Source: an uncultured Erysipelotrichaceae bacterium (GTDB lineage: Bacteria; Bacillota_I; Bacilli_A; RF39; UBA660). From it: 64,000 nucleotides of DNA. Of the stretch, positions 6,012 through 62,112 are shown piece by piece. The position numbers were made by a program, and so were the translations under genes. Location: the NCBI GenBank assembly GCA_902794075.1, contig CADBGE010000001.1, forward strand, positions 76,603-140,602, in the 5' to 3' direction. The number at the start of each line of letters is the position of its first letter. Within the stretch, counting starts at the first letter, position 1. The notes beneath the pieces are model-generated. The model was not told where the DNA came from. It searched no databases and saw only the letters and a program-made list of their open reading frames with translations.

Positions 6012-7418
6012 TTAGCTATTGTCCTCTACGTTTTCGACACCCTTGTCCAATTCTTTCTGTTCACGGTTCATAAATGCAAATGTCTTAAGTTTCCAGGCAT
6101 GTGCAATTCCGTCTTCTTTCTTGATGACAATACCTTCTTGAGGTACATTATTTGTACAGTCAGGACTATTCATCTCCATGAAAAATTTCTCATCATCAGC
6201 AAGTGCAGAAATAAAGTTATCCCCATAATTTTCATCATTGAAAATATTAGGATAAAGATCGTATGCATACCCATAATAGAACTCATTAACAGGCTTAAGT
6301 CCAACTGTTTTACAATAATCCTGAACTTCCTTTGCACTATACTCATGAAAAACTCCATCAATATTTGTAGAAGTAATACGATATACAACAACCTTAAAGT
6401 TTACACCTTCCTTATAATCATCAACTGCGCGAGGAGGTCTACATCCATAATCATATCCCTTTTGGATATATTTACCATTAGGAAGATACCCAACAATTTC
6501 TGCATAAATTGTCATTCCTTTCTGTAGATATGGCTTCAAATAATCAAAACCATATTTCCAAACATCAACACTATAAAATCCTTCACCGGTTGTAGGATTA
6601 ATGTTTGCATTTTTAATGACAGACCTTGAACTATAGATATAGTCATAATCAGGATATGAATCTACATCAGTGTATACAGGCAATGTTCCGCCAAACTTAG
6701 TATATAACCAAGTTAGAATTTTGTCCCATTTCTTTCTTGGTTGTCTACACAATACTCGAGACGCAATCAAACTTGTACCATGCCACTTACTTGTGATACT
6801 AATAAGATCTGTTGGCTTAATTACCCAAGGCTCCTTACGAATCAAAATCGTATCATAATGGAACTTAAACTGTCCTTCAATCAACTTATTAAACCTCTTA
6901 AGCTTATTGTTACGATATTCTCCAGTATTGGTTATTGAAGTTACATTGGTCTGAACAACATATTTACGATTAATCCAAAATGTCTTTCCGTTATGTTCAA
7001 CTTCATCAAATTCAGTATTTATCTCAATGTCGGTAAGTTCAACATTTACAGAATCAAGAATCCAATCTTTAAGATCATCAATAGGCAACAAAAATCCTTC
7101 AGAAGCAAATCCGCCAAGCTTAATTGCTTTTACTCGTCCATTCTTATCAAAGAAGCCCTTCTTCTCAGGATTCCTATTCAATGCACTATTAGAATATAAT
7201 GACAAATACTCAAGAAGTGACGGATTTATTTGTGACATTGCAGGAAAATACACATAAATGCCTTTCTTCATGTCCGTTGAAACAATAATATTAAATCCAT
7301 CTACAACAGCAACCTGAAGCTTAGTGTATTCAGGATTTGGATGCTTTGCGAAATTATTAATCTCAACAATTTTTGCGAGATAATTTACATTTGCTCCCTT
7401 TGATTTTTGTAACTTCAT
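6012..7418 (-). CDS. RNA ligase (Rnl2 / DraRnl-like nucleotidyltransferase)
   Basis: 468 aa. Motif I SKWHGTS (compare T4 Rnl2 EKIHGTN), motif IV-like YAEIVGY and motif V-like EGIVIKKE...WKLK. An extra N-terminal domain is present. Confidence 0.65.
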   Translation of the reverse strand: MKLQKSKGANVNYLAKIVEINNFAKHPNPEYTKLQVAVVDGFNIIVSTDMKKGIYVYFPAMSQINPSLLEYLSLYSNSALNRNPEKKGFFDKNGRVKAIKLGGFASEGFLLPIDDLKDWILDSVNVELTDIEINTEFDEVEHNGKTFWINRKYVVQTNVTSITNTGEYRNNKLKRFNKLIEGQFKFHYDTILIRKEPWVIKPTDLISITSKWHGTSLIASRVLCRQPRKKWDKILTWLYTKFGGTLPVYTDVDSYPDYDYIYSSRSVIKNANINPTTGEGFYSVDVWKYGFDYLKPYLQKGMTIYAEIVGYLPNGKYIQKGYDYGCRPPRAVDDYKEGVNFKVVVYRITSTNIDGVFHEYSAKEVQDYCKTVGLKPVNEFYYGYAYDLYPNIFNDENYGDNFISALADDEKFFMEMNSPDCTNNVPQEGIVIKKEDGIAHAWKLKTFAFMNREQKELDKGVENVEDNS

Positions 7419-10474: not shown

Positions 10475-11221
10475 TCATCCGTTGTACCAATCTGGTGTGT
10501 TTGTTATACCTGAACCGTCAAACATTCGTCCTGTAGCATAAATACTAGATAAATCCCATTTAGATAAATCTCCAACTGATTTTAAGTTTGTACAACAACG
10601 AAACATGGCTGAAATATCTTCAGCATTAGATACATCCCATTTAGATAAATCTCCAACTGATTTTAACTCTTCACAGAAATCAAACATACCGTACATATAT
10701 CTAACTTTTAATACTTTCCATTTTGATAAATCACCTACTGATTCTAATTTATAACAGTTACGAAACATAGTTGAGATATCTTCAACACCTGATACATCCC
10801 AATCAGATAAATCTCCAACTGATTTTAAATTAATGCATTTTTCAAACATTCTAGTTAAAACTTCAGCATTTTGTGTATCCCAATTTGATAAGTCCACAGA
10901 TTTTAATTTTGTGCAGTTTAAAAACATATTGTGCATATTTTTAATGTTTGATACATCCCAGCCAGATACATCTATGTATTCAAAGTTAGTTCCTTGAAAT
11001 ACTCCATAACTACGTTTTTCATCATAAAATGTAGTCATTCCACTTACATCTATATCATTAAAGTAAACAGGTTTCTGTTCTGTTCCAGGTCCTAACTTAT
11101 TGTATTTATCTTCTATAATCTTTCTTAACTCATCAAATGTTTTAGGAAAATATATATATGCGTTTTTATAGTTCTTATTAATGACAAGTTTTTCAGATAA
11201 ATAGTTAACAAGTGACTTCAT
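10475..11221 (-). CDS. DUF285 / BspA-type leucine-rich repeat protein with MKSL leader
   Basis: 248 aa. Starts MKSLVNYLSEKLVINKNYK, followed by about 6 repeats of the SVGDLSxWDVSxxxDxSxMFxxCxxLK type. Confidence 0.8.
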   Translation of the reverse strand: MKSLVNYLSEKLVINKNYKNAYIYFPKTFDELRKIIEDKYNKLGPGTEQKPVYFNDIDVSGMTTFYDEKRSYGVFQGTNFEYIDVSGWDVSNIKNMHNMFLNCTKLKSVDLSNWDTQNAEVLTRMFEKCINLKSVGDLSDWDVSGVEDISTMFRNCYKLESVGDLSKWKVLKVRYMYGMFDFCEELKSVGDLSKWDVSNAEDISAMFRCCTNLKSVGDLSKWDLSSIYATGRMFDGSGITNTPDWYNG

Positions 11222-33017: not shown

Positions 33018-33653
33018 TTAATGTGACCATTTTGGAGCTTTTAATTTTGTTCCATTGGTCATTTTTCTACATTGTTGTGGTCCTAAATTGTTATTTAATT
33101 TTGATTCCCAATTGTCTATGTCTATTCCTTCAAGTGTTTCACAATCTCTAAACATTGCATTAAAATTTGTAACATTTTCAACATTCCATTTGCTAATATC
33201 TCCTATTGTCTTTAATCTTTTACATCCATCAAACATATATCCAAGATGCTTAGCTGATGTCATATTCCATTCAGATAAATCACCAATATATTTAAGATTT
33301 TTACAATCATAAAACATATCATTAAATTTTTTTATATTACTTACATCCCATTTTGAAATATCTATTGCATGCATTTTATAGTCTGATTTCTTTACGTTTT
33401 TATTAACAACGCCAAAAACAAATGATAAATCATCTAAATTAAATACATTAATATCGTTAAGGTCAACTGGTTTTTTATCGGTTCCTCCTTTTTGTTTTAT
33501 GACTAAATCTGAAATAACTTTTATAAGTTCTTCCTTTGTTTCTGGAGTATATATTTGTTCATCTTTATAGTTCTTATTAATTACAAGTTTTTCATTCACT
33601 TGTGATGGAAATATGACAAGTTTTTCAGATATGTAGGTCTTTAATGATTTCAT
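33018..33653 (-). CDS. DUF285 / BspA-type LRR protein with leader plus one FPSQV unit
   Basis: 211 aa. Starts MKSLKTYISEKLVIFPSQVNEKLVINKNYK, followed by IDISKWDVSNIKKFNDMFYDCKNLK-type repeats. Confidence 0.8.
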   Translation of the reverse strand: MKSLKTYISEKLVIFPSQVNEKLVINKNYKDEQIYTPETKEELIKVISDLVIKQKGGTDKKPVDLNDINVFNLDDLSFVFGVVNKNVKKSDYKMHAIDISKWDVSNIKKFNDMFYDCKNLKYIGDLSEWNMTSAKHLGYMFDGCKRLKTIGDISKWNVENVTNFNAMFRDCETLEGIDIDNWESKLNNNLGPQQCRKMTNGTKLKAPKWSH

Positions 33654-34186: not shown

Positions 34187-34876
34187 TTATCTTTTTCTGA
34201 CTTCTGAATACCATGCTGGCATCCTCCATCCAGTTGTTCCTGAAAAAAACATTCTAATATTTTGTCCTGTGACACTCTTATTTATTTTCCAATTATCTAA
34301 ATTTATTGGTTTAAGTTTTTCACATCCTTTAAATAAATAATTAAAATTTTTTACTTTAGAAACATTCCATTGTCCAATATCACCAATATCAGTTAATCGT
34401 TTGCAATTCTCAAACATTGATTTTATATTAACTGCGTTATTCATTTTCCAATTAGATAAGTCACCAATGTTTTTTAACATTTTGCATCCATTAAACATAT
34501 TATAAAAGTCCGTACCAGACGAAACATCCCAGTTACTTAAATCACCTATATAATGAATTGATGAGCATTCACTAAACATATTAGAAAAATCAAGTACATT
34601 ACTTACATTCCAATTACTTATATCAATATATTTAATTTTTCCATAATTAGCATAATAATAATCAGTATAATAAAATGTACTACTTAAATCTTGTACATTA
34701 GACACATCAATATCATTTAAATTTATAGGGTTTTTTTCAGATGATTCTTGTTGACCTTCAAATCTTTCTTTAAGTATTTCTATAAGTTCATGTTTATCTT
34801 TTGGATGTTCAACATAAGGCTCAACATAATCCTTATTTATCTGTAATTTTTCATTTATGAATGATGTTAATGACAT
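34187..34876 (-). CDS. DUF285 / BspA-type LRR protein with degenerate leader
   Basis: 229 aa. Starts MSLTSFINEKLQINKDY. Contains repeats such as IDISNWNVSNVLDFSNMFSECSSIHYIGDLSNWDVS. Confidence 0.8.
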   Translation of the reverse strand: MSLTSFINEKLQINKDYVEPYVEHPKDKHELIEILKERFEGQQESSEKNPINLNDIDVSNVQDLSSTFYYTDYYYANYGKIKYIDISNWNVSNVLDFSNMFSECSSIHYIGDLSNWDVSSGTDFYNMFNGCKMLKNIGDLSNWKMNNAVNIKSMFENCKRLTDIGDIGQWNVSKVKNFNYLFKGCEKLKPINLDNWKINKSVTGQNIRMFFSGTTGWRMPAWYSEVRKR

Positions 34877-38366: not shown

Positions 38367-39545
38367 TTATGCTGCAATTCTTGCTTTTATTTCATCAAGA
38401 TATTTCTTTGCTTTGTTAAGTCTGTCTTTACAATCCTCAAGTCTTGATGCAGCATCAGATCTATAATACTCACCACGTCTTTCAGGATTTTCATCTCCCT
38501 TTTCACGACCAAGTTGAACTGATTTTTCAGCGTCTTTCATACTCTTAAGATATTTGAAATAATCCTCAAATGCCGATGTAATGTAATTCATTACGTTACC
38601 GATGTTATAGCCTTCATCAATATGATCTGTATTGTCAATTATCTGTTCTGATAGTTTAAGAGCTTCATTATGAATTTTTGTGATTTCATTGAACATATAC
38701 TTTGGATTATCTTTAAGTCTCTTTGCGCGAAGTTCTTTAGCAAGTACTTGATAGTGCAATTTTTGAAGTCTAGCAAGTTCTTTTAATGATTCATCATCAT
38801 AATTTATGACACCTTTCTGAGATTCTTCTCTGTCTTTCACAAGTACATCATAATCAGTTATGAATTCATTTGGAATTTCAACAAAGTATATTTCATAATC
38901 ATTAATAAGTTCAATTAATGCGTCTACCTTAAGGTCTCCTTCTTGCCAACCACCCTTACGAAGTGGCGCAGTCTTTTTAGCAACCCTCCTATGTGAATCA
39001 CCTGATGAATTAGTCCATGCCTTAAATTCAAATGTTGAAGGTTTATATGGTTTGCCTGTTTTAGAATCATTATTTGAATATCCGCGAACAGCATATACGA
39101 TATCATGAGTCTCTGGGTCACACACAATGATTAGTCCACGAATCTTACCAGCATATAGCTGCTTAATTCTCTTATGAAGAGCATTCTCATATCCACCTTC
39201 ATAATAAGTTACATTATCATCAGTAATCTTATCCCATTGGCACCCACGAACTTTTTTCTTAGATGATCCATATCTTGAAGTTTGAACAATAGGGCCAAAC
39301 AATGAAGCAAAAGATTTTTCTGATGGTGTTATTTTTCCATATCCTTTCTCATCATATTCTTTTTGTTTTCTTATGTCTTCTGCTCTGTGTTCTTTTTCAT
39401 ATTCTTTTACTGTAGAAGCAAGTTTGCCTAATATCTTTGCCTTGAATGCTTCGTTAATCATTTCTTCACCAATGATTGATGCAGCCTCAGTAAGAATAAT
39501 ATTATCGCATTCCTTGTCAAACAAGTATTCTTTTAAGTTCTTCAT
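38367..39545 (-). CDS. hypothetical protein with leader-like N-terminus
   Basis: 392 aa. Starts MKNLKEYLFD. Confidence 0.7.
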   Translation of the reverse strand: MKNLKEYLFDKECDNIILTEAASIIGEEMINEAFKAKILGKLASTVKEYEKEHRAEDIRKQKEYDEKGYGKITPSEKSFASLFGPIVQTSRYGSSKKKVRGCQWDKITDDNVTYYEGGYENALHKRIKQLYAGKIRGLIIVCDPETHDIVYAVRGYSNNDSKTGKPYKPSTFEFKAWTNSSGDSHRRVAKKTAPLRKGGWQEGDLKVDALIELINDYEIYFVEIPNEFITDYDVLVKDREESQKGVINYDDESLKELARLQKLHYQVLAKELRAKRLKDNPKYMFNEITKIHNEALKLSEQIIDNTDHIDEGYNIGNVMNYITSAFEDYFKYLKSMKDAEKSVQLGREKGDENPERRGEYYRSDAASRLEDCKDRLNKAKKYLDEIKARIAA

Positions 39546-39651: not shown

Positions 39652-40035
39652 TGGTGGACCTTGAGGGAATCGAACCCTCGTCCAAGCAATTCAACCTATC
39701 AGCTTTCTACATGCTTGTTTCGTTCGTTAATTTCGGTAACAATCAGCCAAACGAACAAAACCGACCTTTTACCTATCTCATTATGTGAATCTACTCGACG
39801 GTATACTTGAGAGTCCTACCCCGTCCAGTCATCTGTAACAATGCGCTGTATATTCTTAAACCCAGTGACCAAATTTTTGAACCAGCGTCAAGCAGTCAAT
39901 CCTAGATCAAGCTGCGAGAGCAAAAGTATCTTCGCCATCTAAAAGTGTCAATCGAAAGTTTAAAGAGTTCTTCACGATCATTCCTCTGCATGCTTACCAA
40001 TTTGTCAACATTGCTGTCAAATCCAAGTAAGGCCC
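39652..40035 (-). ncRNA. ssrA: tmRNA (ssrA), phage-encoded, tag GEDTFALAA
   Basis: 5' GGGCCUUACUUGGAUUUGACAGC and ...GCAUGCAGAGG resemble the tmRNA consensus. 3' GGACGAGGGUUCGAUUCCCUCAAGGUCCACCA has a T-arm and an encoded CCA. The acceptor GGGCCUU/AAGGUCC contains G3:U70. The tag frame GGC GAA GAU ACU UUU GCU CUC GCA GCU UGA lies at 39936-39907. Confidence 0.9.
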
Positions 40036-43537: not shown

Positions 43538-43609
43538 TTGCCTCGCCAGGATTCGAACCTGAACCAACAGCTCCAAAAACTGTTGTGCTTACCGTTACAC
43601 CATGAGGCA
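43538..43609 (-). tRNA. tRNA-Gln(TTG)
   Basis: 72 nt. Acceptor tgcctca/cgaggca, D arm gtgt-aacggtaa-gcac, anticodon arm acagt-ttTTGga-gctgt, T arm tcagg-ttcgaat-cctgg. Confidence 0.85.
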
Positions 43610-43919: not shown

Positions 43920-45035
43920 TTATTTTTTAAATGGTTTTCCAAATTTCCAACCATTATTTAAATATTCTTCAAATTTTTCTTTCGGTAATCTTATTACTTC
44001 ATCATCTTTATACATCCATTTTCTACCTTTATGTGGACTTGTTCCTTTTTGTTTCCAATGTTTATTTTTGTTTACTCCAACAAATTCTCCAGATATATAT
44101 CGTTTATCTGTTTTATCAACAAAAAATGTATTACCATTATTATCTTTAACGGCTACTTTATTTTTCATATATTCATAATCATTATTTCTAAATTTGATAA
44201 TTTCACCGGTTTTAAATCTTGGATCATTTTTATTAACTAATCCTAATTTATTTCCATTCTTGTCTATGGCAGGTATTTTGTTTTTGTAATATGATACAAA
44301 TTCACCAGATATATATCGTTCGTCTGTTTTATCAACAAAAAATACATTACCATTATTATCTTCAACAAGGATATGTGTTTTATAAAAATTACTATAATCT
44401 TTTTGTGACCCAATTTTTCGTTCAATTTTATTTTCTGTTTTTTCAGTTCGACCAATTTTATATCCTTTATCTAAATAATACTGTAATTTATCTTTTTGAA
44501 TAAATTTTGTTTCATCATCATTATGAATCCAAACTTTATTACTTGATGCAATTTTATGTTTTGTAGTGTCATTAACTTTAAAACCTTTGTTCCATCCATT
44601 AGATAAATATATTTCTAAATCTTCTCGTTTTATTCTTTTATTTATATAAACATTATTTTCAATTTTATAAATACAAACAGTATTATATTGAGAATTTTTT
44701 TCTCCTTTTTGTTTTTCAGAATTAATTTGTCCAATATGTTTTAACAGTTCTTCATCTAAATAATAACCACCAGGAACCATATTATAACAATTATTATCAT
44801 TAACTAATTCTTCTGTTACAATAGATTTTTCAAGTTGACAAAGCTCATTCCAATCATTACAGTATTGTATAATTTCTTTAGTAAAATTTTCTATACCGTA
44901 TTTTTTATAAGCCGCATGTAATCGTTTTCCAGAACCCATGTACCCATCATCTAAATTTGATGTTTTGTGAATTCCGTAATAAAAATGATTATTTACATTA
45001 TTTGTTATTTTATATAAATAAAAATATGTTTTCAT
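43920..45035 (-). CDS. GIY-YIG homing endonuclease (Seg-like)
   Basis: 371 aa. N-terminus YLYKITNNVNNHFYYGIHKT...GYMGSGKRLHAAYKKYGIENF is a GIY-YIG module. The C-terminal half is repetitive (FFVDKTDxRYISGEFV). Embedded in the tRNA array. Confidence 0.8.
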   Translation of the reverse strand: MKTYFYLYKITNNVNNHFYYGIHKTSNLDDGYMGSGKRLHAAYKKYGIENFTKEIIQYCNDWNELCQLEKSIVTEELVNDNNCYNMVPGGYYLDEELLKHIGQINSEKQKGEKNSQYNTVCIYKIENNVYINKRIKREDLEIYLSNGWNKGFKVNDTTKHKIASSNKVWIHNDDETKFIQKDKLQYYLDKGYKIGRTEKTENKIERKIGSQKDYSNFYKTHILVEDNNGNVFFVDKTDERYISGEFVSYYKNKIPAIDKNGNKLGLVNKNDPRFKTGEIIKFRNNDYEYMKNKVAVKDNNGNTFFVDKTDKRYISGEFVGVNKNKHWKQKGTSPHKGRKWMYKDDEVIRLPKEKFEEYLNNGWKFGKPFKK

Positions 45036-45302: not shown

Positions 45303-45857
45303 TTATTCAAAGCATTCACTATATTTTTCAATATCTTCTACAGAAAAATATTTCTTATATTTCTCAAGAATTTTCAGTCCATGCTCATGAATATACTCAA
45401 GTAATGGATTTGAGTTCTTCAGTCCTCCTGATTCAAAATTATAAAAATATATTATTGCATCAAGATTATCAATAAAGTCACCTCTAACATCAATATCATT
45501 ACTAAATAGCCAATCAACAAAATCCTCATATAATTTATGATAACCATTCCAAGAACATATATTTCTATTCTTTCTATCTATATGTTTTGATTGATCCTTC
45601 ATTCTAATAAGATTTATTTCGTCATAACACAAAATTTCATCAAGTGCTATTTCAAAATTAAATTTAGAAAAAGGTCTTTTATCATTACTAAGATAAATGT
45701 GTATATGAGGTCTTTGCCTATCTCCGGCATTAGTTCCATGAACAGTAATATAATAATCTATTTTATTTAGTACAGGATATCCTATACTTGCCATTTCTAC
45801 TACATAATCCCATTCAGGATTGAACTGTTCATCCACGTATGTATTTAGATGTTTCAT
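45303..45857 (-). CDS. hypothetical protein with leader-like N-terminus
   Basis: 184 aa. Starts MKHLNTYVDE. Located between tRNA sub-clusters. Confidence 0.65.
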   Translation of the reverse strand: MKHLNTYVDEQFNPEWDYVVEMASIGYPVLNKIDYYITVHGTNAGDRQRPHIHIYLSNDKRPFSKFNFEIALDEILCYDEINLIRMKDQSKHIDRKNRNICSWNGYHKLYEDFVDWLFSNDIDVRGDFIDNLDAIIYFYNFESGGLKNSNPLLEYIHEHGLKILEKYKKYFSVEDIEKYSECFE

Positions 45858-45872
45858 TTTTATTATATTTTG

Positions 45873-45947
45873 TGGTCCCTGACGGCGCCGCCCCGTCCAC
45901 CCCGAAATTAAAAGTTTCGTGCTCTACTAATCATGAGCTAAGGAACC
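45873..45947 (-). tRNA. tRNA-Lys(TTT) with aberrant T loop
   Basis: 75 nt. Acceptor ggttcct/agggacc, anticodon arm cgaaa-ctTTTaa-tttcg. The T arm is gacgg-GGCGGCG-ccgtc (no TTC) and the D loop atgattagta lacks GG. Confidence 0.65.
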
Positions 45948-45953
45948 TATTTG

Positions 45954-46026
45954 AGCAGATGACGTGATTCGAACACGCAACTTTCAGATTGGAAATCTGA
46001 CGCTCTGCCAATTGAGTTACATCTGC
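45954..46026 (-). tRNA. tRNA-Trp(CCA)
   Basis: 73 nt. Acceptor gcagatg/catctgc, anticodon arm tcaga-ttCCAaa-tctga, T arm gcgtg-ttcgaat-cacgt. Confidence 0.85.
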
Positions 46027-46031
46027 AGCTG

Positions 46032-46115
46032 TGGGAGCGGGTCGACTCGAACGACCAGTCCAATTAAGGAATGGATTTACAGTCCATGCGGCTTCCAGTT
46101 ACCGGTTACGCTCCC
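46032..46115 (-). tRNA. tRNA-Tyr(GTA), class II
   Basis: 84 nt. Acceptor gggagcg/cgctccc, anticodon arm atgga-ctGTAaa-tccat, long variable arm, T arm ggtcg-ttcgagt-cgacc. Confidence 0.85.
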
Positions 46116-46130
46116 AATATTAAAGATTAG

Positions 46131-46296
46131 TCAGGTAAGATGGAATTGAACCACCACTAATATAAATTGATATTTTTAGATTTAGTACAATTAACATAAA
46201 CTACCAAATTCATATTACCTTTTATCCTTCCTGTACACACTATAGATAAAAACCTCCCATACCATCATGGGTGTGCTACCGTTACACCATTACCTG
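46131..46296 (-). ncRNA. tRNA-like gene with about 95-nt internal insertion, anticodon unassigned
   Basis: Perfect acceptor caggtaa/ttacctg, D arm gtgt-aacggta-gcac, T arm ggtgg-ttcaatt-ccatc. The anticodon-position hairpin cccat-gatggt-atggg has a 6-nt loop, and about 95 nt (two hairpins) lie between the variable-loop position and the T arm. Confidence 0.4.
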
Positions 46297-46301
46297 ATAT
46301 A

Positions 46302-46631
46302 TTATTCTTTAACGTCTTTAGACATAATAACTTCATCAGGATAAAATTCTAAAAATGTTTTAAGTACTTCATTATAAAATATATAAGTAACTAAGCCTTT
46401 TCTTGATGAAGTAATTGTTTTACTTAATGTGAAGTAATACTTTTCCGATTTGCCAATCATAGTCTTTCCAAGATCCCATACAATAATTGGTAAAACATTT
46501 CTATCGATCATATCAGAAATCTTTTTAATTATTTCATCAGATTTCATATTAGGTAAAGTACCATATATATGAATGATATTAGAACAATTAGATTTTGATT
46601 TTGTCTTAAATAATGAACTAAGAATATTCAT
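46302..46631 (-). CDS. hypothetical protein
   Basis: The track ORF 46302..46667 starts at a GTG that overlaps tRNA-Pro. The first ATG (MNILSSLFK...) is at 46631. Confidence 0.5.
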   Translation of the reverse strand: MNILSSLFKTKSKSNCSNIIHIYGTLPNMKSDEIIKKISDMIDRNVLPIIVWDLGKTMIGKSEKYYFTLSKTITSSRKGLVTYIFYNEVLKTFLEFYPDEVIMSKDVKE

Positions 46632-46652
46632 GATTAATTCTTTAAATATTTT

Positions 46653-46728
46653 TGGTAGGGTAAACACGGCTCGAACGTGCGACCTCTACATCCCAAATGT
46701 AGCATTCTACCTACTGAACTATTACCCT
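46653..46728 (-). tRNA. tRNA-Pro(TGG), CCA encoded
   Basis: 76 nt. Acceptor agggtaa/ttaccct, anticodon arm ctaca-ttTGGga-tgtag, T arm gcacg-ttcgagc-cgtgt, 3' ACCA. Confidence 0.85.
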
Positions 46729-46839
46729 TGGCGCCGCCTTACTTATATTTTTACATTCAGTATATATCCTGAACACTGGGGCCGTGCGGCATGTTCTTTA
46801 TGAAGCTTCTCCCCATCTATTGGCCGAATAGAGTATGTG

Positions 46840-46914
46840 CGGTGCGTACGGGACTCGAACCCGTGACCTCCTGCGTGACAGACAGGCATTCCAAACCAAC
46901 TGAACTAACGCACC
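46840..46914 (-). tRNA. tRNA-Asp(GTC)
   Basis: 75 nt. Acceptor ggtgcgt/acgcacc, anticodon arm cctgt-ctGTCac-gcagg, T arm acggg-ttcgagt-cccgt. Confidence 0.85.
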
Positions 46915-46920
46915 AAAATA

Positions 46921-46988
46921 TGTTTGATTTATCATCGTGCTACCGTTACACTAAGGAGTCGAACCTAATCTTATGATATAATCAAACA
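46921..46988 (-). ncRNA. permuted tRNA-like element: long closing helix + T arm + D arm, no acceptor stem
   Basis: Minus-strand RNA: tgtttgattatatcat-aaga-[ttagg ttcgact cctta]-[gtgt aacggta gcac]-g-atgataaatcaaaca. The ends pair over about 15 bp. The D-arm sequence is identical to that of element 46131..46296. Confidence 0.35.
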
Positions 46989-47019
46989 CCTTAAAAATTC
47001 ACGTGAACTTTAATTTTTG

Positions 47020-47088
47020 TGGGAAACAGAGGACTCGAACCTCCTAATAGATTGTGATTATCTGCAGTTTCAAAATCTAATACCACCC
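47020..47088 (-). ncRNA. tRNA-like element (canonical T arm, weak acceptor, no D arm)
   Basis: The 3' part is ggagg-ttcgagt-cctct-gtttccc-a. An upstream 6-bp stem tagatt/aatcta encloses 20 nt beginning ttGAAac (Phe-like). The 5' strand gggtggt pairs only with wobbles. Confidence 0.3.
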
Positions 47089-47153
47089 AATTTTAAATTC
47101 AATTATGTACACTCGTTGAATACAAATTTTGTGTAGAATCCCATATTTAAAAG

Positions 47154-47227
47154 TTGCGTGGGGTCAGATTCGAACTGACGACCTTCTGCTTATGAGACAG
47201 ACGAGCTGACCACTGCTCCACCCCGCA
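47154..47227 (-). tRNA. tRNA-Met(CAT) (fMet-like body, bulged acceptor)
   Basis: 74 nt. TGCGGGGTGGAGCAGTGGTCAGCTCG... closely resembles the E. coli tRNA-fMet 5' half. Anticodon arm tctgt-ctCATaa-gcaga, T arm gtcag-ttcgaat-ctgac. The acceptor 3' strand ccc-a-cgca has one bulged A. Confidence 0.65.
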
Positions 47228-47245
47228 ATATATTTATCTATTTAG

Positions 47246-47332
47246 ATGCCACCGAAGGAATCGAACCTCCACCCGAATCACCAGGGATGTACCTGCGGGT
47301 TCCCATGTGTATGCAGCTAACATACGGTGGCA
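47246..47332 (-). ncRNA. tRNA-like element, 87 nt, anticodon unassigned
   Basis: Acceptor tgccacc/ggtggca and T arm ggagg-ttcgatt-ccttc are canonical. The remainder (gtatg-ttagctg-catac hairpin, acccg...cgggt helix) does not fit a D/anticodon arm layout. Confidence 0.35.
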
Positions 47333-47380
47333 ATATAAAAAATTGAAATCCCTATAGGTAAATGTAAATCATCATTCATA

Positions 47381-47450
47381 ATCAATAGATGGGATTCGAA
47401 CCCATAATCTCTGAACGTTACAGCGGTAATACCGTTTGCCTAACTAATGA
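47381..47450 (-). ncRNA. tRNA-like element, 70 nt, anticodon unassigned, embedded in a longer closing helix
   Basis: Acceptor tcattag/ctattga (one U-U mismatch) and T arm atggg-ttcgaat-cccat. No 5+7+5 anticodon arm found. Flanks pair: ttgaaatc (47343-47350) with gatttcaa (47473-47480), and aatgtaaat with atttacatt. Confidence 0.35.
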
Positions 47451-47919: not shown

Positions 47920-47991
47920 CGCTTGTGGAGAATTACGATATCCCGACCTAGTGGTTAACAGCCACTCGCTCTACCTCTGAGCTACACAAGC
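47920..47991 (-). tRNA. tRNA-Asn(GTT) with unusual T loop
   Basis: 72 nt. Perfect acceptor gcttgtg/cacaagc, anticodon arm agtgg-ctGTTaa-ccact. T arm gggat-atcgtaa-ttctc (A at position 54, 53-61 unpaired). Confidence 0.7.
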
Positions 47992-49004: not shown

Positions 49005-49079
49005 TGGACCCAGAGGGTCATGATCCCCCGACCTTGACATTATGAGTGTCCTGCTCTATACCAACTGAGCTATGGGTCC
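49005..49079 (-). tRNA. tRNA with CAT anticodon (Met or Ile2), unusual T loop
   Basis: 75 nt. Perfect acceptor ggaccca/tgggtcc, anticodon arm ggaca-ctCATaa-tgtca (27-43 mismatch), T arm ggggg-atcatga-ccctc (A at position 54). Confidence 0.65.
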
Positions 49080-49960
49080 TATTTCATTTTTCTACCTTTT
49101 ATCCAACCGTTGTTAATATAATCATTAAGTTCTTCTTTTTTAATTTTTATATTAATTGGTTTATTATTTTCATCAAATTTATAAATCCAGCATGTCCCGT
49201 ATTGTGAATTATTTTTACCCTTACCGTGATTTATTAATTTATATGTTTCTTTTTGTTTTTTAATTGATTCAGGTTTATGTTTTCTTCCAGTCCATATACA
49301 TTTTAATTCTCCAGATAAATATCTTGGATCATCAACTGAAACAGAATAATAATTTCCGTTTTTATCTTTTACAGATACTTTATTTTTTCCTAAAGCAATA
49401 TATTCACCAGATATATATCTTGGATCATCAACTGAAACAGAATAATAATTTCCATTTTTATCTTTTACTGTTATTTTGTTTTTTGTTAAAGCTTCATAAA
49501 TTTCTTTGTTATATTCTTCCTTTTTTATCATCAAATGTTCTCCTGTTGATTTTATTTTTACAGGAATTAAACCTTTTGTTGATGGTGTGTATTCACCGCT
49601 CATATATTTTGGATCATTTTTTGAACATCTAAAATAGTTTCCGTCTTTATCTTTTACAGGCACAGAACCATACGTATTCCATCCTTTTCCGCCACATTGA
49701 ATATTATAACATTCAGGATCATGAACTAAATCTTCTGTAACAATTTCAGATTCATATTGATATGCCTCATTTATAGTATTAAAATATTTTAATATTTCTT
49801 TACTAAAGTTTTCAATACCATATTTCTTATATGCATATTTTAATCTTGTGCCTGAACCCATATATCCATCATCTAAATTATCTGTACAATGTACACCATA
49901 ATAAAAATGATTATTTATATTATTTGTTATTTTATAGAAATAATTGTATTTTCTTTTCAT
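49079..49960 (-). CDS. GIY-YIG homing endonuclease (Seg-like), second copy
   Basis: The track ORF starts at TTG 49969. The ATG at 49960 gives MKRKYNYFYKITNNINNHFYYGVHCT...GYMGSG...YGIENF. The TAG stop abuts the tRNA 5' end. C-terminal repeats KDKNGNYYSVSVDDPRY(I/L)SGE. Confidence 0.8.
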   Translation of the reverse strand: MKRKYNYFYKITNNINNHFYYGVHCTDNLDDGYMGSGTRLKYAYKKYGIENFSKEILKYFNTINEAYQYESEIVTEDLVHDPECYNIQCGGKGWNTYGSVPVKDKDGNYFRCSKNDPKYMSGEYTPSTKGLIPVKIKSTGEHLMIKKEEYNKEIYEALTKNKITVKDKNGNYYSVSVDDPRYISGEYIALGKNKVSVKDKNGNYYSVSVDDPRYLSGELKCIWTGRKHKPESIKKQKETYKLINHGKGKNNSQYGTCWIYKFDENNKPINIKIKKEELNDYINNGWIKGRKMK

Positions 49961-50032
49961 AATGTTCAATGATATTTTATATATATTTATATTGAACTAT
50001 ATAATTAAAAATAATAAATTATTTCTAATTAG

Positions 50033-50106
50033 TAGGGATGATGGGTACTGCCCCCACTATCTCGAATTTATAAGATTCGCGCTTCTACTGTCTAAGCTAC
50101 ATCCCA
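50033..50106 (-). tRNA. tRNA-Ile(TAT) with aberrant T loop
   Basis: 74 nt. Anticodon arm cgaat-ctTATaa-attcg, acceptor gggatg/catccc (6 bp plus a terminal U-U). T arm gtggg-GGCAGTA-cccat, and the D loop agacagtag lacks GG. Confidence 0.6.
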
Positions 50107-61467: not shown

Positions 61468-62112
61468 TTACATGTTAGAACATCCATGTAACATATTATA
61501 TGTTTTTGCGGATGACACAATGTTCCATTTATTTAAATCAAAATTTAATTCATAACAAAACATAAACATTCCAGTAAAATCTTTTCCATTCTTTACGTCC
61601 CACTTACTTAAGTCGCAATTGAATTTTTTACATCCATAAAACATGCAAGAAAAATCTTCTCCATTCTTTACGTCCCACTTACTTAAGTCACAATTGAATT
61701 TCTGACAATTAAAAAACATACTTTTAAAATTATTGCCGCCACTTACATTCCAATCACTAATGTCAAATCCTTTACGTCCTACATTTTTGTCTTCAAAAAA
61801 CAAATCACTAAAATCATCTATTTCTGAAACATCAATGTCATTTAAATCATATATATCTTTGTCATAATGTTCTTTTATAATGTCTTTTAGTTCATCTTTA
61901 TTTTTAGGATGATAATTATACATTTTATAGTTCTTATTAATTACAAGCTTTTCATCTACTTGTGATGGAAATATTACAAGCTTTTCGTCTACTTGTGATG
62001 GAAATATTACAAGCTTTTCATCTACTTGTGATGGAAATATGACAAGCTTTTCATCTACTTGTGATGGAAATATGACAAGTTTTTCATGTATATACTTATT
62101 TAATGATTTCAT
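61468..62112 (-). CDS. DUF285 / BspA-type LRR protein, leader with four tandem FPSQVD units
   Basis: 214 aa. Starts MKSLNKYIHE(KLVIFPSQVDE)x4 KLVINKNYK. Contains repeats such as FDISDWNVSGGNNFKSMFFNCQKFNCDLSKWDVKNG. Confidence 0.8.
   Translation of the reverse strand: MKSLNKYIHEKLVIFPSQVDEKLVIFPSQVDEKLVIFPSQVDEKLVIFPSQVDEKLVINKNYKMYNYHPKNKDELKDIIKEHYDKDIYDLNDIDVSEIDDFSDLFFEDKNVGRKGFDISDWNVSGGNNFKSMFFNCQKFNCDLSKWDVKNGEDFSCMFYGCKKFNCDLSKWDVKNGKDFTGMFMFCYELNFDLNKWNIVSSAKTYNMLHGCSNM
61943..62087. repeat. 33-bp tandem repeat, 4 full copies plus a partial one (coding)
   Basis: Units acaagcttttc(a/g)tctacttgtgatggaaatat(t/g) at 61943-61975, 61976-62008, 62009-62041 and 62042-62074, plus a partial unit to about 62087. 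Each encodes EKLVIFPSQVD on the minus strand. Confidence 0.9.

Follow-up and report, generated by a model that had tools for sequence, protein, structure and literature searches.

A permuted T-arm and D-arm element without an acceptor stem, from a tRNA array of a phage, is similar to the effector half of YrlA

The bacterial Y RNA known as YrlA carries a module with a tRNA fold and a conserved UA before its D stem, and the effector that reads the elbow of this module was never identified (PMC4201824, bioRxiv 10.1101/312249). The effector module has been proposed to engage a factor that recognises the elbow or core of a tRNA and is sequence-specific to some degree (Wang et al.; bioRxiv 10.1101/312249), and the Ro60-binding motif GNCGAAN0-1G lies near the 5′ end, in the terminal stem (PMC4201824). 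Pairs of Ro60 and Y RNA have also been documented in phages (PMC4201824, PMC12135203). YrlA, Yrn1 and the Yrl RNAs of phage phiLo bind a Ro60/Rsr protein and tether it to an effector such as PNPase. RNAs of the YrlA type are further marked by a neighbouring Ro60/Rsr (TROVE) gene and by modification of the tRNA type through TruB or DusA. A survey of viral structured RNAs from 2023 treats tRNA-like candidates in general terms only, and none of the papers searched describes acceptor-less T-D modules or YrlA-like arrays inside phage tRNA clusters. Here we describe a 68-base element on the minus strand of a 64,000-nucleotide (nt) stretch of contig CADBGE010000001.1 (the window, meaning the whole stretch analysed), which is AT-rich, phage-like DNA with a tRNA array. 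The element resembles the effector half of YrlA and cannot be classed as a Y RNA. We hold it to be, with high confidence, a genuine structured RNA of this superfamily, and we regard it as a new and minimal variant, probably independent of Ro60, of the YrlA-type permuted tRNA mimic.

Read in the sense of the tRNA array, the element runs from a stem strand through a T loop and a D arm into the opposite stem strand, which is the order of a tRNA opened at its anticodon end (Table 1). This topology had been proposed in a first-pass annotation of the DNA and was recovered here together with most of its parts. The terminal helix, which that annotation put at roughly 15 base pairs (bp), does have 15 bp, arranged as 9 bp, a single bulged A and 6 bp. 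It is contained in the minimum free energy (MFE) fold, for which the z-score was -2.8 and which none of 200 shuffled sequences equalled. The D hairpin follows the T hairpin as had been described, with a D arm that is identical to positions 46273-46289 of the 46131-46296 element (treated below as a companion RNA) and nearly identical to tRNA-Gln 43585-43602. U-UA is the sole sequence between the two arms, in keeping with the earlier statement that there is no acceptor stem; its UA corresponds to U8 and A9 of tRNA and to the conserved UA of YrlA, and is replaced by UG in some homologues. The T hairpin had to be revised in part. Its loop, UUCGACU, stands, and the 11 bases of the hairpin recur in the T arm of the window's tRNA-Ala, but the 5-bp stem uuagg/ccuua that had been assigned to it contains an internal U·U mismatch, and comparison backs two G-C pairs alone. 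Within the junction that precedes this hairpin, the ARGA part is conserved (its A, G and A are invariant) and looks like a variable loop; behind it, 2-3 nt remain of what was the 5′ strand of the T stem. The element has neither acceptor strands nor an anticodon loop, it is overlapped by tiny open reading frames (ORFs) only, and it was called as a tRNA neither by ARAGORN nor by Rfam (RF00005) at E≤10.

Homologues were collected by a pattern scan for the T loop and the D arm, and a locus was counted as a family member when exactly 3 nt separated the CC from the D stem. This 3-nt-gap family comprises 3 IMG/VR loci and 27 metagenome loci, which lie on uncultivated phage contigs and give 18 distinct versions over 51 nt (alignment A1). 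The element pattern had no match in 185,579 reference genomes, and deposited phages yielded no full match: blastn with the 37-nt core gave only the D arms of tRNA-Gln or tRNA-Trp, and megablast of positions 45800-47400 gave a tRNA-sized match only. All members can be written as ARGA-N2-4-GGUUCGACUCC-UUR-GUGUAACGGUAGCAC-R within a stem of at least 14 bp, and the window element fits this description. A 36-nt core is invariant over the 18 distinct versions while the flanks are fully diverged, an invariance that is in part a matter of ascertainment, since most T and D bases were fixed by the search patterns. The positions that the patterns left free are invariant as well, namely the A, G and A of ARGA (ARGA having been left unfixed), the first G of the GG, the bases that had been entered as R, N or Y wildcards, and the UU after the CC. 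We also built a custom covariance model of the family (R1), a means of recognition that the first-pass annotation had put forward. With the window sequence included in the model, R1 found the element as its single match in the 64 kb, at 66.7 bits; the other family members scored 68-78 bits. Relaxing the D stem while keeping CCUUR gave chance matches only, in other contexts, and matches with a 5-nt gap in the metagenome scan were discarded as ordinary tRNA-Gln genes behind a promoter. A wider relaxed scan returned mostly chance or tandem-tRNA matches, together with four real variants.

The closing stem occurs in about nine different sequences across the family, and pairing is retained in them. 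Both sides of the helix change at 7/7 of the pairs nearest the core in the 18 homologues, and the four core-proximal pairs are 100% paired, with 3-4 pair types each. The covariation score of the closing stem was 0.427 compared with 0.110 for shuffled alignments, of which 0/500 reached it, and it was ≤0.22 when the partners were slid. The covariation that the first-pass annotation had asked for in related phages is present in the closing stem; the T and D parts, being invariant within the 3-nt-gap family, show none. Every wobble in the 51-nt alignment is G·U on the tRNA-sense strand, and A·C or C·A does not occur among the unpaired cells, an asymmetry that points to an RNA on that strand. The extended stems hold more G·U pairs, and the outer stem of L002 has one C·A mismatch. 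Stems of 14-21 bp span the core in every member. They are usually built of an outer helix and an inner helix of 4-7 bp, separated by a 5′-side bulge of 3-5 nt. On the 3′ side, many members have an additional hairpin, the loop of which is palindromic (for example AUCUUGCAAGAU); among all these forms, that of the window element is the simplest. No Rfam match was found at the element in the homologues.

Relatives with longer gaps were identified in IMG/VR by a wider scan, in which one D arm was fixed and 3-20 nt were allowed between the T and D arms. Permuted T-then-D modules are carried by 75/81 of the loci obtained, and all loci that were checked for tRNA genes lay in tRNA arrays. The gaps measured 3, 7-10, 16-19 or 20 nt, and the 20-nt class was rejected as modules because it consists of ordinary tandem tRNAs. 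Among L004-L081, the 8-nt class has 23 loci, the 16-nt class 25 loci with a GCC-GNRA-GGU mini hairpin, and the 18-19-nt class 13 loci with a CCCC-UUA-GGGG hairpin, the extra bases of the 7-19-nt gaps forming a short linker or a mini acceptor-like hairpin. These longer-gap modules have a conserved 5′ flank, C(C/A)GCAA, and a conserved 3′ flank, CCUGUU. Their T stem has 4-5 bp, in which pairs 50-64 and 51-63 always form and covary; in the 18 homologues of the 3-nt-gap family the constant pairs are limited to G52-C62 and G53-C61, with the next one present in roughly half of the sequences. R1 matched the 7-19-nt-gap relatives over its full length, with the insertion exactly between the T and D arms, and the wider relatives also contain compensatory variants of the D stem (GCUC/GAGC, GUUC/GAGC, GUUU/AAAC and GCGU/GCGC). 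Set against these modules, the window element looks like a trimmed derivative, from which the acceptor-like hairpin has gone together with the outer T stem's 3′ half, so that only GG/CC is left.

We then compared the element with YrlA (RF02553). In the labels of Rfam, the YrlA consensus has the order stem, internal loops, short stem, variable loop, T, AS, UA, D and stem, and the order stem, variable loop, T loop, D arm and stem is shared by the element. Common to both are also a U-purine before the D stem, the elbow consensus bases in the T and D loops, and a discontinuity of the closing stem 5-7 bp below the core. A T stem-loop lies 5′ of a D stem-loop in each, with loops of tRNA consensus, on a T stem that in the element has only 2-3 bp, and the long stem formed by the paired 5′ and 3′ ends, a feature of Y RNAs, is found in the element and throughout its family. 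The two differ at the acceptor-like stem-loop of YrlA, which is replaced by 1 nt in the element (only U-UA leads from the CC to the D stem in 18/18 members), and in the D arm, which reads GUGUAACGGUAGCAC in the element and GCUCA....GGUAGAGC in the YrlA consensus.

Two phage loci have an intermediate character. At L079 (1160-1211), a member with a 17-nt gap, the T-AS-D segment of the YrlA model (positions 26-82) aligned at 27.5 bits. At L022 (1480-2400, minus strand), five or more YrlA- or YrlB-like RNAs lie in tandem inside a phage tRNA cluster; these scored 64, 46 and 41 bits with YrlA and 27 and 24 bits with YrlB, all under the gathering thresholds (69 bits for RF02553). Positions 2036-2158 of L022 combine the Y-stem words CGAAUGC, GGAUUACAU and UUUCGUCGGG with a T arm, a 5-nt linker and the element's own D arm, and have no acceptor. 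The 3.3 kb analysed for this locus contain only two ORFs of at least 80 amino acids (aa), of 152 and 114 aa, which are too short for Ro60. When eleven loci were searched with Rfam at E≤1, 9/11 had no match at the element, and L022 and L079 had sub-threshold YrlA matches only, which in L022 fell beside the module and not on it; L006, L027, L046 and L068 had no match at the module at this threshold. Taken together, L022 and L079 provide a graded series that leads from YrlA-like RNAs to the window element.

On balance, we lean towards explaining the whole as a tRNA-derived non-coding RNA that presents the tRNA elbow and core and acts in trans as a decoy or scaffold. Such a gene would have kept only the core and the elbow of a tRNA, mounted on a 15-bp stem made of its own ends. 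The RNA would be co-transcribed with the tRNA array and released by the RNase P cut of the downstream tRNA and by trimming of the 3′ end of the upstream tRNA; RNase P cleavage would leave the spacer UAUUUU as its 3′ tail. In the released RNA the D stem would stack on the closing stem, and the T loop would dock on the D loop through contacts of the types G18-U55, G19-C56, U8-A14 and G26-A44, as in tRNA and in the YrlA crystal structure. Because there is no acceptor arm and no anticodon loop, the element can neither be charged nor decode, nor serve as an RNase P substrate, and the surface of the elbow and core alone is left, so binding would be the remaining plausible activity. The factor bound in trans would be one that reads the elbow or core, as proposed for the YrlA effector module, here with the Ro60 module dispensed with. 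It is possible, if rather doubtful, that these are the first Ro60-independent stand-alone tRNA-elbow modules and form a phage class that captures a host factor reading the elbow or core, for which the YrlA effector, RNase P, a tRNA-modifying enzyme or a tRNA-directed immune nuclease would be candidates.

Several points weigh against this explanation. RNAalifold and the MFE fold both favour an alternative inner fold, with the pairs G16-C35, U17-A34, U18-A33, A21-U30, C22-G29 and U23-R28, at -15.5 vs -14.9 kcal/mol for the tRNA-like fold, and nearest-neighbour energy cannot tell the two apart. The T and D parts are invariant in the family, so their pairing is not probed by covariation there, and the search patterns contributed to that invariance. 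A 2-bp T stem is without precedent for a tRNA-like elbow, and the T loop may not be held; moreover, the Levitt-type partner is A, not U, in two lineages. Finally, the role as decoy or scaffold is one that we infer. The tRNA-like inner fold is carried by a comparative case, made up of the tRNA-exact segments, the covarying T stems of the longer-gap relatives, the R1 matches, the compensatory D stems and the elbow bases. The bases for tertiary contacts are present as U8-A14, R9, G18-U55, G19-C56, R26-A44, a G46-like G and mostly A15-U48, and matching contacts are shown by the crystal structure of YrlA in its tRNA-like module (bioRxiv 10.1101/312249). On visual inspection of alignment A1, the purines R9, R26 and R45 showed no mutual correlation.

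The placement of the element bears on whether it works in trans at all. In most lineages it exactly occupies the spacer between two tRNA genes of the same strand, beginning 2-3 nt past the upstream tRNA and stopping 3-7 nt short of the next one, and it always lies a few nt from the 5′ end of the next RNA; the core is 19-24 nt from the end of the upstream tRNA and 19-38 nt from the start of the downstream tRNA. This exact fit suggests release by tRNA-processing enzymes. It is also what would be expected of a cis-acting spacer in the tRNA precursor, which would serve as a folding insulator or as an elbow handle for RNase P or 3′ processing and have no role as a free RNA, and the specificity domain of RNase P does recognise the tRNA elbow. 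We nevertheless consider this rival unlikely. A plain hairpin would insulate, and the invariant core of 36 nt exceeds that need. Moreover, the flanking tRNAs differ between lineages (Leu/Leu, Gln/Ile or Ala/Ser, with Asp downstream in the window), and at L098, L108, L110 and L112 no ARAGORN tRNA lies within 600 nt of the element, with no tRNA called anywhere in L098 and L112. The element of L108 has a promoter-like motif of its own upstream, TTTG-N19-TAtcTTTG, which fits TTTG-N19-TAnnTTTG, the Bacteroidetes promoter consensus.

The same stretch of L108 (5980-6300, minus strand) contains, after the element, a GC-rich structured RNA (CCGGGGCGGAGUCAGUCAGGAAUGG...GGAAGCAGGGGCAGCACCUGUCACCCCGAC), in which some words recall domain IV of the signal recognition particle (SRP) RNA. 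This SRP-like candidate had no Rfam match at E≤10, and beyond it the promoter-like motif occurs once more.

A true Y RNA, which would bind a host or phage Ro60/Rsr and tether it to an effector such as PNPase, is an improbable reading of the element. The topology of the YrlA module, the intermediates, the stem formed by the 5′ and 3′ ends, the short U-rich 3′ tail and the known Ro60 and Y RNA pairs of phages all speak for it, and MAFFT aligns the window's GAUUAUAU, with the bulged A, to the conserved GGAUUACAU of the YrlA-like units. However, the element has no GNCGAAN0-1G and no AAUGC motif, nor an outer helix on which such a motif could lie; GNCGAAN0-1G is absent from the 5′ strand UGUUUGAUUAUAUCAU and from the stems of the homologues alike. 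In most relatives the stem sets in only 2-3 nt past the upstream tRNA, so that a Ro60-binding helix would not fit in. An Rsr/Ro60 orthologue, which the first-pass annotation had suggested as a companion to look for, was not among the 29 window ORFs compared with Pfam, none of which has a TROVE domain (all ORFs of ≥300 aa were included), and no TROVE domain is recorded in the precomputed Pfam lists of the relatives L154-L163. The Infernal-type comparison with Rfam that had likewise been suggested gave no match to YrlA or YrlB at E≤10, even when only 111 nt were searched. The likeness to YrlA-type Y RNAs drawn in that annotation therefore holds for the permuted topology and is strengthened by the intermediates, but it does not extend to the acceptor-like stem-loop, the Ro60 motif, a TROVE protein or an Rfam match.

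A decaying, functionless remnant, in which a deletion fused a T arm to the next D arm, perhaps through homing endonucleases, is already disfavoured and has very little probability. The tRNA-Gln type of the D arm, the T loop of the window's tRNA-Ala, the half-deleted T stem and the GIY-YIG and HNH genes inside the array are compatible with such an origin, but the core has stayed invariant in 18 distinct contexts, the closing stem evolves by compensation, and L157 and L160 (94% and 95% identity in a neighbouring protein) share an identical element despite rearrangement of the array. A DNA-level site of recombination or protein binding would account for the variable inverted repeats around a conserved core and for the CACGTG palindrome that adjoins the element in the window, L002, L157 and L160, but it is highly implausible given that G·U is tolerated on the sense strand (C·A on the other, with one C·A seen, in the L002 outer stem), that the element is always oriented like the tRNA genes, that its core is tRNA T-loop and D-arm sequence, and that the palindrome is missing from other lineages.

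Other RNAs with rearranged or reduced tRNA structure share single features with the element. Circularly permuted tRNA genes of the Cyanidioschyzon merolae type yield complete tRNAs through a bulge-helix-bulge junction and a circular intermediate. They likewise place the T arm of the 3′ half upstream of the D arm of the 5′ half, but they keep both acceptor strands and the anticodon loop, neither of which the element has, so no functional tRNA could result from it. The tRNA-like domain of transfer-messenger RNA (tmRNA) contains a T arm and a D-loop analogue, and permuted tmRNA genes put the T arm before the 5′ acceptor strand; tmRNA depends, however, on an acceptor stem that can be aminoacylated and on a reading frame for the tag, both of which are missing from the element. 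In arm-reduced mitochondrial tRNAs and in the T-loop motifs of RNase P, rRNA and T-box RNAs, cores work on shortened stems, yet these are decoders or parts of large RNAs, whereas the element stands alone and has no anticodon and no acceptor. The rnaC and rnaD RNAs of phage T4 (species 1 and 2) resemble the element in their setting, being stable tRNA-related RNAs in a phage tRNA array beside a GIY-YIG gene. However, rnaC has a normal T arm and a 3′ acceptor strand at its 3′ end and is unpermuted, and we rejected both as relatives, as R1 with filters off reached at best 8.3 bits (E 1.2) in the T4 region.

Table 1. Position of the element, its parts, and associated features in the window and in related loci
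Feature	Position	Strand	Remarks
Element, 68 bases	46921-46988	minus	between the palindrome 46993-47011 (5′) and tRNA-Asp (3′)
Closing stem, 5′ strand UGUUUGAUUAUAUCAU (UGUUUGAUU-A-UAUCAU)	46988-46973	minus	from sequence and MFE fold; bulged A = 46979
Closing stem, 3′ strand AUGAUAAAUCAAACA	46935-46921	minus	pairs with 46988-46973
Junction AAGAUUA	46972-46966	minus	invariant columns of alignment A1
T-loop hairpin GG-UUCGACU-CC	46965-46955	minus	tRNA T-loop consensus on a 2-bp stem (3 bp in the window, with A-U)
Linker U-UA	46954-46952	minus	in place of the acceptor stem
D arm GUGU-AACGGUA-GCAC	46951-46937	minus	tRNA-Gln type
G (position-26-like purine)	46936	minus	
Spacer UAUUUU, 6 nt	46920-46915	minus	before the 5′ end of tRNA-Asp (46839-46914)
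Palindrome AAAGUUCACGUGAAUUUUU (AAAGTTCACGTGAATTTTT)	46993-47011		perfect core, CACGTG; just 5′ of the element; unique in the window
Companion tRNA-shaped RNA	window 46131-46296; L002 7217-7377; L157 2575-2735	minus; plus; plus	same D arm as the element
tRNA array	~43.5-50.5 kb	minus	
Homing-endonuclease genes, GIY-YIG and HNH	43920-45035 and 49079-49969	minus	inside the tRNA array
Standard tmRNA	39652-40035		
Longer-gap modules (examples)	L013 5087-5120; L004 1529-1570; L006 958-1001		

Two features accompany the element in its closest relatives. The palindrome just 5′ of it, which could be a protein site or a weak hairpin, is kept in L002, L157 and L160. The second feature is the companion RNA (Table 1), which is called by neither ARAGORN nor Rfam. 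Its acceptor stem of 7 bp (CAGGUAA, CGGAAAA or CAGCAAA) covaries and is accompanied by discriminator A; at the position of the anticodon arm there is a 4-5-bp hairpin with a 5-6-nt loop that is not an anticodon (GAUGGU, UUAGGU or AUGGG), followed by a structured insert of ~100 nt and a normal T arm. In L002 and L157 the companion comes immediately 3′ of the element, whereas in the window and in L160 the two are separated by an insertion of tRNA-Asp, tRNA-Pro and a small ORF (102 aa in the window).

Further tRNA-like sequences were noticed in the window. Rfam calls minus-strand tRNAs at 47920-47991 (54.1 bits) and 50033-50106 (43.3 bits), neither of which is listed by ARAGORN; for the tRNA-Tyr that ARAGORN calls at 46031-46115, Rfam has a weak tRNA-Sec-like match only. 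An uncalled minus-strand sequence at 47030-47100 combines a T arm (GGAGG-UUCGAGU-CCUCU) with an interrupted acceptor but lacks a D arm; it is also kept in L157 and L160. Another, at 47230-47330 on the same strand, has an aberrant core besides its T arm and an acceptor of 7 bp (GCCACCG/CGGUGGC).

The other genes of the window include those for an NAD-dependent ligase, type II topoisomerase subunits, ClpX, a sigma factor and tail-fibre-like proteins. Among deposited phages, those nearest in topoisomerase IV subunit A are the Prevotella Lak megaphages (51% amino-acid identity), and the sample labels of close relatives in ENA and Logan assemblies suggest animal-gut studies as their source. Like the window, with its GIY-YIG and HNH genes, the tRNA cluster of T4 holds a homing-endonuclease gene, segB, inside the array. 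A 468-aa ORF at 6012-7418 (minus strand) matches PHROG 968, 'RNA ligase' (E 7e-35), with a faint NCBIfam RNA-ligase match and none in Pfam; in a phage with so many tRNA-like RNAs, its product may serve in RNA repair. Four DUF285 (BspA-like leucine-rich repeat) paralogues are spread across the window, at 10475-11221, 33018-33653, 34187-34876 and 61468-62112. A 392-aa ORF at 38367-39545 (minus strand), adjoining the tmRNA, has 21 homologous clusters in public metagenomes and no match in Pfam, PHROG, NCBIfam or PDB sequences. Its close homologues led to the relatives L157 and L160, and homologues of ~33% identity lie 1-4 kb from the element in L087, L102 and L115; as a candidate partner of the element it was dropped, the link being weak.

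Mimicry of tRNA by YrlA is known, and the element described here is a natural, minimised version of it that reveals the selected surface: an invariant core of 36 nt that lacks an acceptor, an anticodon and a Ro60 module. It offers a compact bait for pull-downs and possibly a handle on the YrlA effector. With one D arm alone, 75/81 IMG/VR loci carried such modules, and phage tRNA arrays thus appear to hold many unannotated permuted tRNA-like RNAs; the absence of an Rfam match at the element in 9/11 loci, and the sub-threshold matches in the other two, show that the counts of RNA genes given by tRNA finders and Rfam are too low for such phages. Confirmation of the fold would define the least that a tRNA elbow can be built from. 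On the more doubtful reading of a phage class of elbow modules, the minimal elbow-forming unit would be a D arm together with a T loop on a stem of 2 bp, and capture of a host factor would protect or retune the tRNA pool during infection.

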